Of a stretch of DNA of 64,000 nucleotides, positions 61,512 through 62,913 are shown one piece after another. The translations under genes and the position numbers were made by a program. Position 1 is the first letter of the stretch. Every line of letters begins with the position of its first letter. The notes under the pieces were generated by a model. It saw only the letters and a list, made by a program, of their open reading frames with translations, was not told where the DNA came from and made no database searches. The stretch lies in sequence record PQ471516.1. The stretch is one strand, 5' to 3'. The stretch comes from Escherichia phage Turkey5.

Positions 61512-61774
61512 TGGATATACAATCTCAATTACAATTGTTAACAGTGCTTGAAGATTCTGCGTTTCAGGTTGTATCAGATATAATCAAATCACTCCCACCT
61601 GGAACTAAAGTACGTGTTAGAGAGAAGAGTTATGATACTTTCGAAATAGTTGAACAGGAATTAACTGTAAAAAAAGTAACTTATTATGACTCATCATTAT
61701 GTATTCAGTGTGAGGATAAAGACGAGATGTTATTGTATTATAATCAACACACAGATATAGAGGTAATATCATGA
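61511..61774 (+). CDS. hypothetical protein (87 aa)
   Basis: ATG 61511 overlapping upstream stop (TAATGG). Confidence 0.55.
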   Translation: MDIQSQLQLLTVLEDSAFQVVSDIIKSLPPGTKVRVREKSYDTFEIVEQELTVKKVTYYDSSLCIQCEDKDEMLLYYNQHTDIEVIS

Positions 61775-62913
61775 CACATTTACAAATATACGAAGACTTA
61801 ATGCACTTGTGCAAAACAAATGAAGCATTTTATTATGTTGATCATAAAAGTCCGGCTGGTGGTACATACCGTGTATTCTCATATCGTCTGGCTTCTTATA
61901 CTGATTTCAGTCTTCCCAATGCACTGGAAACACGTGGTTCTATGTGGGAAATTGATGAAGATGGTGAAATGATTCGTTGTGCAGCAAGAACAATGGAAAA
62001 GTTCTTCAATGCTTACGAGAACCCATTCACTATGTTCAGTTCAGATACGACTTGTGAAGATATTTCGGTAGCGATGCCTAAACTTGACGGTTCAATCATC
62101 AGTACATTTCGTGATAACGATGGTGAAATCCGTTGTAAATCACACACTTCCTTGTCATCTGACCATGCAATTAACAGTACTCGACTATTGAACGAGAACC
62201 GTAATTTGTATGATTATGTAGACGAAGCAGACCGTTTGGGTTATACTGTGAATCTGGAGTATACAAGTCCAGAGTACCGAATAGTATTACCATATCAAGT
62301 AGAACAATTATTTGTACTCAATGTTCGTCATCGTAAAAGTGGTGAGTTGTTATGCGGAGCAGCACTACGTAAGAAGTTCCCTTGTTTAGCACAATACAGT
62401 ACTAATATGACGGGTAATAACATATGTTCATCATTTCCGGTGCGTTCTACCTTCAAAGAAAGTGTAGAAGAAGTCCGTAAAATGGTTGACATTGAGGGGT
62501 TTGTGTGCATCCTAAATAATGGTACAATGTGTAAAATTAAAACGGATTGGTATTGCTCCTTGCATTTAACAAAGGATAGTATTATCATAGATTCCCATTT
62601 ATATGAAGCTGTATTAAATGGTAGTAGTGATGACCTAAAGCAGTTGTTCAGTACTGATGCATATGCTATGCAGAAGATATTAAAAATGGAACAACATGTA
62701 TTTGGATGCTATAATGCTTTACAAGATGAGGTAGAAAGCTTCGTCCAACAATACAAGCACTTGGAGCGAAAGGAATTCGCAATGAAGGTTCAGGAATGTC
62801 TTAAGAATGAACTGAACCGTCAGGGCTTGGCCTTTGCGTTGTACAACGGTAAAGTGGTGAATTATAAAGAAACTTTATTGAAGTACTACAAAGATGTACT
62901 AAAGGATTTTTAG
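61771..62913 (+). CDS. rnlA: RNA ligase 1 (T4 Rnl1-type ATP-dependent RNA ligase)
   Basis: Along-length similarity to T4 RNA ligase 1 as I recall it: 'GGTYRVFSYRLASYTDFSLPNALETRG', 'MEKFFNAYENPFTM', nucleotidyltransferase motif I 'KLDGS', 'YRIVLPYQ', 'FVLNVR', 'KIKTDWYCSLHLTK', 'GSSDDLKQLF'. Confidence 0.9.
   Translation: MTHLQIYEDLMHLCKTNEAFYYVDHKSPAGGTYRVFSYRLASYTDFSLPNALETRGSMWEIDEDGEMIRCAARTMEKFFNAYENPFTMFSSDTTCEDISVAMPKLDGSIISTFRDNDGEIRCKSHTSLSSDHAINSTRLLNENRNLYDYVDEADRLGYTVNLEYTSPEYRIVLPYQVEQLFVLNVRHRKSGELLCGAALRKKFPCLAQYSTNMTGNNICSSFPVRSTFKESVEEVRKMVDIEGFVCILNNGTMCKIKTDWYCSLHLTKDSIIIDSHLYEAVLNGSSDDLKQLFSTDAYAMQKILKMEQHVFGCYNALQDEVESFVQQYKHLERKEFAMKVQECLKNELNRQGLAFALYNGKVVNYKETLLKYYKDVLKDF

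Follow-up and report, generated by a model that had tools for sequence, protein, structure and literature searches.

A jumbo-coliphage RNA ligase of the Rnl1 family and its predicted end-healing partner

The locus considered here raises the question of whether a phage gene resembling RNA ligase 1 (Rnl1) of T4 encodes a working ligase, which enzyme would prepare RNA ends for it, and what the gene says about the phage that carries it. The physiological role of T4 Rnl1 is tRNA repair (PMC6379707), and in jumbo phages polynucleotide kinases and phosphoesterases are generally congruent with RNA ligases (PMC7824862). The DNA analysed is a single stretch of 64 kb, referred to as the window, and the ligase gene (61771..62913, plus strand) is the largest open reading frame (ORF) in its ORF list.

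Family, domains and active site of the ligase

The ligase ORF runs from ATG to stop and encodes 380 amino acids plus the stop codon. A Shine-Dalgarno-like GAGG can be read in the sequence at 61760..61763 (plus strand), 7 nt 5' of the ATG, which itself overlaps the stop codon of the preceding ORF (ATGA). This overlap suggests that the ligase is translationally coupled to the upstream ORF. Sigma-70-like sites were rarer in a promoter scan (14) than in shuffled sequence (21), and therefore no promoter is claimed.

Family assignment is based on profile searches and on comparison with solved structures. The protein matches Pfam RNA_lig_T4_1 (PF09511; aa 55-261, 62 bits against a cut-off of 28.3) and T4_Rnl1_C (PF20819; aa 268-362, 62 bits against 27), as well as the NCBIfam equivalog TIGR02308, ‘T4 RnlA family RNA ligase’ (295 bits against 242.25). 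These Pfam and NCBIfam cut-offs are curated; the match to PHROG 562 (E 4e-108) comes from a collection without a curated cut-off. The Rnl2-type family PF09414 gave no match to the ligase in the Pfam search. T4 Rnl1 structures (PDB 2c5u, 5tt6 and 9do4) match aa 5-361 with E-values of 4e-59 to 2e-58, a similarity far beyond chance. An earlier note on this DNA had reported a match to T4 Rnl1 along the length of the ORF, including a KxDGS motif, and this is borne out (aa 5-361, E about 5e-59, with the Pfam and TIGR02308 scores above their cut-offs).

ATP-dependent RNA ligase families are defined by their appended domains, and it is the C-domain that makes T4 Rnl1 specific for tRNA broken in the anticodon loop (PMC6379707). 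The predicted two-domain architecture here is the same as that of T4 Rnl1 (gp63/RnlA; 2C5U, 5TT6, 9DO4), comprising an N sub-domain, a nucleotidyltransferase core, and a helical C-domain. Pfam, the T4 residue map and an alignment of 121 homologs place an N-terminal adenylyltransferase domain at aa 1 to about 265 (61771..62565, plus strand). It consists of an Rnl1-specific N sub-domain (Y38, R55, K77, F79) and the core (K104-L-D-G-S108, K123-S-H125, E163, E242-G243, K255/K257, Y261). The Rnl1-specific, all-helical C-terminal domain occupies aa 268-380 (62572..62910, plus strand), as indicated by PF20819 and by the predicted model, which has helices at 259-377. Relative to T4 Rnl1, the ligase has an insertion of ~10 residues between motifs III and IV, around aa 207-224, and His in place of motif Ia Lys119.

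The AlphaFold2 model (pLDDT 92.7) has its best Foldseek matches in the same T4 Rnl1 structures (E 4.5e-32, about 387 columns). Against 2c5u the model reaches a global TM-score of just 0.62 and the rmsd is large, probably because the domains are oriented differently in the model and the crystal. The next-best matches are to fungal Trl1 (E about 1e-10 to 1e-11). The ligase domain of Trl1 (Rnl6 clade; 6N0T, 6N67, 8RBJ) shares the Rnl1-like N sub-domain and core (PMC6379707), but it differs in its C-terminal module and seals only 3' ends that bear a 2'-PO4. Trl1 is also fused to kinase and cyclic phosphodiesterase domains, whereas the ligase here carries an Rnl1-type C-domain. In yeast, loss of Trl1 (trl1-delta) is complemented by the T4 ligase and Pnkp enzymes. 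The nick-sealing T4 RNA ligase 2 (Rnl2) is a weak structural match (E about 1e-5); it belongs to the same covalent lysine nucleotidyltransferase superfamily, but has no Rnl1 N sub-domain, and its C-domain is of another type. Judged by sequence and predicted fold together, the ORF is a full-length RNA ligase of the Rnl1 family.

The active site can be compared with that of T4 residue by residue. Among 19 mapped functional residues of T4 Rnl1, 18 are identical in the ligase, 16 of them invariant and two nearly so across the 121 homologs (37-94% identity). Motif I, KLDGS (aa 104-108; 62080..62094, plus strand), aligns with T4 K99-E-D-G-S, so that K104 corresponds to Lys99, the AMP-accepting nucleophile; its K, D, G, and S show no variation in any of the 121 homologs. 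The N sub-domain retains R55, K77, and F78-F79, which vary little or not at all across the homologs and match T4 residues that act on the ATP gamma-phosphate (Arg54, Lys75) and on the adenine (Phe76/77) (PMC6379707). Motifs III, IV, and V (E163, E242-G243, K255/K257) are likewise present and invariant across the homologs, and T4 Glu159 and Glu227 have catalytic roles (PMC6035275). Loss of the catalytic lysine or of other nucleotidyltransferase motifs had been named in the earlier note as what would contradict its reading; these are intact, with 18 of the 19 T4 residues kept.

The sole mapped functional residue unlike T4 lies in motif Ia, where T4 118-SK-119 reads S124-H125 (His125 codon at 62143..62145, plus strand). 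Wang et al. in 2003 reportedly placed Lys240 and Lys242 in motif V of T4 Rnl1 and reportedly found Lys119 to be essential. Across the 121 sequences, the Lys119-equivalent column holds H in 48, K in 41, Q in 18, and N in 14, the jumbo-phage branch having mostly H/Q/N and the T4-like branch mostly K. Since this column is mixed, Lys is no family-wide requirement, and His125 reads as clade variation that gives no ground for exclusion from Rnl1. The gene might instead be taken for an inactive relic or pseudo-enzyme that has lost its T4-essential lysine, and the replacement of Lys119 by His125 does point that way. This is nevertheless vanishingly improbable. The change is clade-wide and limited to the H-bond-capable H, Q, and N, and 16 other functional positions do not vary among the 121 sequences of 37-94% identity. 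The adjacent K123 (T4 Lys117) is likewise invariant. The ORF is also full-length with a good ribosome-binding site. Values of dN/dS are 0.125 against the related phage vB_EcoM_JNE01 (JNE01) and 0.10 against phage 121Q, and at about 0.1 they indicate purifying selection on the ligase gene. Conservation in the 121 homologs and dN/dS speak together against a pseudo-enzyme reading of K119H, which is rejected, and the ligase is predicted to be a functional enzyme with an intact active site.

Relatives of the phage and the genes downstream

The sequence records closest to the window belong to Asteriusvirus jumbo phages with genomes of 348-384 kb; its nucleotide identity is 95.7-97% to JNE01 and 87-87.5% to 121Q. 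The source is, to judge from this similarity, an Asteriusvirus-type jumbo coliphage of ~350 kb, compared with ~170 kb for T4, a Straboviridae phage. The ligase had been taken in the earlier note as an anchor for a taxonomic guess, by implication a T4-type one, and this does not hold: the most similar genomes lie outside the T4-type phages (Straboviridae). The ligase shares 37% identity with T4 Rnl1 (35-40% aa with T4-type phages generally), and homologs of Rnl1 turn up in 1,673 phage records spanning more than 50 host genera. The gene is consequently a weak taxonomic anchor, and an Rnl1 homolog is an unreliable marker for T4-type phages.

The closer orthologs are found in JNE01 (94% aa), 121Q (gene 438, 86%), and GAP32 (58%), and RaK2/121Q/GAP32-type jumbo phages share with this locus its neighbouring genes and carry, downstream, a gene for a bifunctional polynucleotide kinase/phosphatase (Pnkp). 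The resulting ligase-Pnkp pairs include genes 438 and 443 in 121Q and gp464 and gp470 in RaK2. Within the window itself, tblastn with two jumbo-phage Pnkp proteins returned nothing better than E = 1, in agreement with the earlier remark that no polynucleotide kinase is present there. The gene's position in relatives accounts for this. In 12 records from 11 related phages, the start of Pnkp lies exactly 9 nt past the homolog of window base 64000, and the window aligns collinearly with JNE01, without gaps, right up to position 64000 (97.35% across 8001 nt). Its final letters, TAATAAG (63994..64000, plus strand), comprise the stop of the last ORF and the first bases of an AAGGAG Shine-Dalgarno sequence, which precedes the Pnkp ATG in JNE01 when the two sequences are set side by side. 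Homology puts the expected Pnkp start codon at 64009, outside the window. Searches for the genome's own continuation, by exact-protein lookup, with a 55-mer in IMG/VR and with a 42-mer in JGI metagenomes, gave no match. Ungapped collinearity and the 9-nt offset make the missing Pnkp, in all likelihood, a window-edge effect, and it is very likely, given these relatives, that the gene is present in this genome. A different partner for the ligase, which the earlier note had entertained, is unnecessary.

The relatives' Pnkp proteins have two domains, with intact kinase and phosphatase motifs. Gene 443 of 121Q matches Pfam HAD_PNKP at 148 bits and has a P-loop kinase domain, and the JNE01 protein matches both domains of T4 Pnkp (1ltq, E 6e-35). 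Residues essential to T4 Pnkp are, for the kinase, P-loop Lys15/Ser16, Asp35, Arg38, and Arg126, and, for the phosphatase, Asp165-x-Asp167, Arg176, Arg213, and the DD motifs. Proteins from JNE01, 121Q, GAP32, and L007 keep the P-loop K/S(T), D35, R38, DxDGT, R176, R213, and both DD motifs; Arg126 is aligned in the HMMER alignment (RNxKR) and off by one residue in MAFFT. Some database labels for these genes are in error: the JNE01 record calls both ligase and Pnkp ‘hypothetical protein’, and the Sharanji record names its Pnkp ‘zeta toxin’.

About 1.1 kb separates the ligase from the predicted Pnkp, and all four ORFs in this interval are on the plus strand. Directly 3' of the ligase is a conserved, very basic ORF of 84 aa (62943..63197; pI 10.1, phrog_15306). 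It is followed by three small ORFs (63207-63437, 63421-63675, and 63682-63996), two of which fall in PHROGs of unknown function and one of which has no match; their homologs keep the same order in JNE01 and 121Q. Pfam gave no matches to eight ORFs neighbouring the ligase, and PHROGs matched six of the eight, each to a family of unknown function. No tRNA genes were found in the 64 kb window, and the Gad2 (anti-Gabija) gene that lies upstream of the ligase in GAP32 is absent from it.

GAP32 (58% identity) and a metagenomic jumbo contig (49%) keep the order of ligase and Pnkp. One T4-type genome resembles these relatives in having Pnkp 3' of the ligase on the same strand, where rnlA is followed by five small genes and then pnk. 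The intervening genes differ, being alc and spanin-like in the T4 type and four small ORFs of unknown function here. Two more distant Rnl1 carriers have no recognisable Pnkp within 8 kb, and one of them has Rnl2 and RlaP instead. Adjacency of Rnl1 and Pnkp is not universal.

A proposed repair module and its alternatives

Taken together, the genomic and active-site comparisons make it quite probable that the ligase is the sealing half of a two-enzyme module for repairing RNA breaks, with the downstream Pnkp as the healing half. By homology to T4, this bifunctional 5'-kinase/3'-phosphatase, encoded past the window end on the same strand, would yield 3'-OH and 5'-phosphate ends. The ligase would then be adenylylated at Lys104, with Arg55 and Lys77 holding the ATP gamma-phosphate, Phe79 contacting the adenine, Glu163 and Glu242 binding metal, and Lys255/Lys257 engaging the alpha-phosphate. 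AMP would be moved to the 5'-phosphate, after which the ligase would catalyse attack by the 3'-OH, and the helical C-domain may target the enzyme to the tRNA anticodon loop. Both catalytic activity and a tRNA substrate are inferred by this analogy, and naming PrrC as the specific trigger extrapolates from T4. The tRNA-repair capacity that the earlier note had proposed stands as the best-supported function, with the qualification that its kinase is seen only in relatives, 9 nt past the window end.

The T4 homolog raises another possible role. In gp63, RNA ligase and tail-fibre attachment activities are united in one polypeptide, and PHROG 562 and several GenBank records carry the label ‘RNA ligase and tail fiber protein attachment catalyst’. 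The chief role of the protein could accordingly be non-catalytic promotion of tail-fibre attachment to the baseplate, with ligation secondary. This seems very unlikely, because the family label is inherited from T4, the residues invariant in 121 homologs are those of the ligase active site, and the partner conserved with it in these genomes encodes an enzyme that heals RNA ends and is no fibre gene. The ligase also lies within a block of small early-type ORFs rather than in a structural module. In phages of the 121Q type, both head and tail sheath bear hair-like fibres (PMC7824862), and fibre joining in the style of T4 therefore need not apply.

A functional ligase might also depart from the T4 paradigm in its substrate or partner rather than reverse PrrC-type cleavage of tRNA-Lys. 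It might repair mRNA, rRNA, or phage transcripts cut by toxins or colicins, or it might follow a different end-healing enzyme. PrrC is limited to some E. coli strains, the exchange of motif Ia Lys for His/Gln/Asn is specific to the jumbo branch, and the C-domain is only moderately similar to that of T4 (Pfam spans aa 268-362). A calcineurin-like phosphoesterase is encoded a few kb downstream in 121Q and GAP32, and jumbo phages are reported to bring together several ligases and healing enzymes whose roles are presumed to be specialised (PMC7824862). Against this, the Rnl1-specific C-domain, which specifies tRNA in T4, scores above its Pfam threshold, and the relatives have a T4-type Pnkp with both active sites in a T4-type gene order. 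The chance that the ligase departs from T4 in this way is accordingly rated as very small, and repair of RNA breaks with Pnkp remains the preferred reading.

Significance of the locus

Repair by a ligase-Pnkp pair is an ordinary and already known arrangement. Earlier work has noted the pair in RaK2, in phAPEC6, and in jumbo phages at large, and in RaK2/121Q/GAP32-type jumbo phages it has been read in print as a tRNA-repair or anti-Prr system. The present locus has little significance beyond correct annotation. The ligase allele has no exact counterpart in sequence collections, and its nucleotide identity to JNE01 is lower inside the gene (91.8%) than in the flanks (98.3%); no functional difference is implied.

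A bolder view, that the jumbo-phage branch of Rnl1 is a mechanistic variant, with the 84-aa basic ORF as an accessory factor and a divergent allele shaped by an arms race, is improbable. If it were true, His/Gln/Asn in place of the motif Ia Lys could alter a step of ligation or the substrate range, and the strongly conserved ORF at 62943-63197 could be an unrecognised accessory factor in repair, for instance a regulator that binds RNA or DNA. On this view, the lower identity of the allele (92%, compared with 98% in the flanks) would stem from allele exchange driven by an arms race with host defences that target tRNA.

The locus also illustrates that absence of a gene from a window can be an edge effect, in this case of 9 bases. 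For the biology of these phages, an RNA-break repair kit bears on plating on hosts with tRNA-cleaving abortive-infection systems, and such plating would be relevant if jumbo coliphages were used in therapy against E. coli O157 and strains like it.

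Family membership and active site

The ORF at 61771..62913 (+ strand) is a real, intact Rnl1 ligase gene encoding 380 aa from ATG to stop. Its start codon shares bases with the stop of a 91-aa ORF upstream (ATGA), and GAGG is found 7 nt upstream. The protein carries the Pfam domains RNA_lig_T4_1 (aa 55-261, 62 bits, cut-off 28.3) and T4_Rnl1_C (aa 268-362, 62 bits, cut-off 27), matches PHROG 562 (E 4e-108), and scores 295 bits against the NCBIfam equivalog TIGR02308 (cut-off 242). Among solved structures, aa 5-361 resemble three T4 Rnl1 sequences, 2c5u, 5tt6 and 9do4 (E 4e-59 to 2e-58). 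An earlier note had described a T4 Rnl1-type ORF with a KxDGS motif, and these matches bear it out; the motif reads KLDGS (aa 104-108, nt 62080-62094, + strand). The identification is far beyond chance. Orthologs in the jumbo phage 121Q, RaK2, Cronobacter phage GAP32 and others are labelled RNA ligase.

Alignment with T4 Rnl1, whose sequence was cross-checked against HMMER-printed fragments, mapped 19 functional residues, of which 18 are identical: Y38, R55, K77, F79, K104, D106, G107, S108, E163, L183, R186, E242, G243, K255, K257, Y261, D287 and D288. Loss of the catalytic lysine or of other motifs, which the note had named as evidence against a ligase, is therefore not what is found: K104 and the 17 other residues are retained. 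Apart from T4 Lys99, Glu159, Glu227, Arg54, Lys75 and Phe76, we take the roles of the mapped residues to be those described by Wang et al. in 2003 and 2006. Roles for Lys99, Glu159 and Glu227 are given in PMC6035275, and those for Arg54, Lys75 and Phe76 in PMC6379707. Across 121 family members, 16 of the 18 residues are present in every sequence, while F79 and R186 are nearly invariant.

The sole mapped departure lies in motif Ia, where T4 Lys119 is replaced by His125. In the same 121 sequences this column holds H 48, K 41, Q 18 and N 14 times; H, Q and N predominate in the jumbo-phage branch (roughly at least 50% identity to the query), and K in the T4-like branch. Since all four residues are hydrogen-bond donors, the position would appear to need a donor rather than a charge, and the enzyme is probably active. 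This clade-wide change is mildly unusual. An AlphaFold2 model (52-sequence alignment) has a mean pLDDT of 92.7, and its top PDB match is T4 Rnl1 (E 4.5e-32, ~387 aligned columns), followed by fungal Trl1 ligase domains, archaeal Rnl3, and Rnl5/Rnl2. A different inter-domain orientation in the model probably accounts for the large rmsd and the global TM-score of 0.62.

Genome affiliation and the ligase allele

The source phage is an Asteriusvirus-type jumbo coliphage. The nearest database record is Escherichia phage vB_EcoM_JNE01 (JNE01, 355.6 kb), with 95.7% identity over window positions 60500-64000 and 97.35%, with zero gaps, over 56000-64000. From the ligase to the window end, identity is 87.5% to 121Q, slurp01, G17, Sharanji and ~30 others, which are ~350 kb jumbo phages of the genus Asteriusvirus from E. 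coli and Salmonella. The ligase protein is only 35-40% identical to those of T4-type phages, and 1,673 phage records spanning more than 50 host genera contain Rnl1 homologs. The gene therefore provides no T4-type taxonomic anchor, contrary to the earlier suggestion.

Compared with known Asteriusvirus genomes, positions 1-25000 are a mosaic: coverage stays below 80% in every record, and CRJP21 reaches the highest value (61% at 93% identity, split into 11 pieces). In vB_Ec-M-J, the area matching this region is annotated 'Direct Terminal Repeats'. The window start may lie close to a genome end.

The ligase coding sequence is 91.8% identical to that of JNE01 at the nucleotide level, against 98.3% for the other 6.9 kb of 56000-64000. 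The divergent patch (61200-62800 as compared) returns abruptly to 100% at ~62800. The JNE01-type allele occurs at 99.5% in three Logan contigs; the window's own allele is unsampled. Differences from JNE01 are mostly synonymous (dS 0.315, dN/dS 0.125), and dN/dS against 121Q is 0.10. This pattern is suggestive of allele exchange by recombination, not of diversifying selection. Such a locally divergent allele is mildly unusual.

Surroundings of the ligase

Directly after the ligase lies an 84-aa, very basic ORF (62943-63197, + strand; pI 10.1, 24 K+R; phrog_15306), in the same position in JNE01, 121Q, GAP32 and a metagenomic contig. It retains 36 invariant positions over five phages, with identity down to 55%, and has zero Pfam or PDB matches; only by eye does its conserved stretch NTFGxSSTxYKKxRKPK resemble a helix-turn-helix. 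A conserved basic ORF between ligase and kinase is mildly unusual. About 1 kb before the ligase, the gap separating ORFs 60510-60782 and 60822-61511 holds a terminator-like hairpin (60784-60802, + strand) with an 8-bp stem, 5 of its pairs GC, and a trailing TTTTTT run. The ligase's transcription unit may begin here; a promoter scan found no convincing sigma-70 promoter.

Further upstream are a Dam-type DNA N6-adenine methyltransferase (55185-55712, + strand; PF05869, 115 bits) and an ORF (55709-56248, + strand) 40% identical to a GAP32 protein bearing a weak cytidylyltransferase-like match; their order is kept in 121Q and GAP32. In the syntenic block of GAP32 (sequence L006), a gene at 5438-6535 with a match to Pfam Gad2 (anti-Gabija) precedes the ligase by ~1.5 kb; no homolog is present in the window. 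The repair module appears to sit in variable surroundings of an accessory or counter-defence kind.

Overall, the window resembles a cluster of short, early-type genes. Only 32 ORFs reach at least 170 aa, the ligase being the largest, and the minus strand has none; among eleven larger ORFs, only the ligase and the methyltransferase have Pfam matches. All-against-all BLASTP (E < 1e-5) revealed paralogous small ORF arrays on the + strand: a 10-member family of roughly 70-100 aa (cluster 20522-24347, one more at 35828-36037) and two interleaved 4-member families (30271-33427 and 37386-38590).

The predicted kinase partner and proposed RNA repair

The earlier note reported no polynucleotide kinase in the window and raised the possibility of a different partner. 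The absence stands (tblastn, best E 1 or worse), and there are likewise no tRNA genes in the window. The alternative is not supported, as the bifunctional 5'-kinase/3'-phosphatase (Pnkp) of relatives has its start exactly 9 nt past the counterpart of position 64000. According to record coordinates, this offset holds in 12 records from 11 phages: JNE01, 121Q (two records), slurp01, ECO103 4-12-1, EC22.5-2, G17, Sharanji, CRJP21, E9.1, UE-S1 and ph0011. The window's final bases, TAATAAG, match those that in JNE01 precede gagtaataATG, so the window terminates within the Pnkp Shine-Dalgarno. By strong inference from this synteny, Pnkp is almost certainly encoded directly past the window edge.

The 121Q Pnkp is the 310-aa product of gene 443, annotated "polynucleotide kinase"; its start lies 12 nt past the counterpart of the window's final ORF, and it carries Pfam HAD_PNKP (148 bits) and a P-loop kinase domain. 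The 314-aa JNE01 equivalent matches T4 Pnkp 1ltq across both domains (E 6e-35); its kinase domain keeps the P-loop Lys and Ser/Thr, Asp35, Arg38 and the RNxKR arginine, and its phosphatase domain keeps DxDGT, Arg176, Arg213 and both DD motifs. Annotation of these genes is uneven. The JNE01 Rnl1 (sequence L002, 7272-8414) and Pnkp (L002, 9510-10454) orthologs are both mislabelled 'hypothetical protein', and Sharanji Pnkp (OR545507.1, 314856-315785) is labelled 'zeta toxin', reflecting a sub-threshold Pfam P-loop match.

A same-strand series of Rnl1, one to five small ORFs, Pnkp and then DNA ligase recurs in GAP32 (ligase identity 58%), a metagenomic jumbo contig (49%) and Klebsiella RaK2-type phages. 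The T4-type genome NBG2 has rnlA, alc, four small genes and pnk on one strand, so the T4 paradigm has this ligase–Pnkp arrangement as well. The linkage has exceptions: in two more distant Rnl1 carriers, Pnkp could not be recognised within 8 kb, and one of them has Rnl2 and RlaP nearby. The RaK2 paper (PMC3622015) describes gp464 and gp470 as RNA repair proteins and proposes that the phage might profit from a tRNA repair pathway; in a comparison of 224 jumbo phages, polynucleotide kinases and phosphoesterases were generally congruent with these RNA ligases (PMC7824862). With orthologs already annotated and the pair discussed in print, the finding is already known.

The analysis demonstrates that the protein belongs to the Rnl1 family, that its active site is intact, that selection on it is purifying and that it is linked to Pnkp in relatives; its activity, its substrate and which host nuclease is countered are inferred by homology to T4. 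The gene might instead serve mainly in tail-fibre attachment, act on a substrate other than tRNA or with a different healing partner, or be an inactive relic. These readings are less well supported, because the catalytic residues are the invariant ones, the ligase is under purifying selection, and the gene conserved beside it encodes an enzyme that heals RNA ends. In the favoured tRNA-repair reading, Pnkp would heal both RNA ends, and the ligase, adenylylated at Lys104, would transfer AMP onto the 5'-phosphate and seal the break. The Rnl1-type C-domain, which has a role in tRNA targeting in T4 (PMC6379707), would direct the enzyme to the tRNA anticodon loop.
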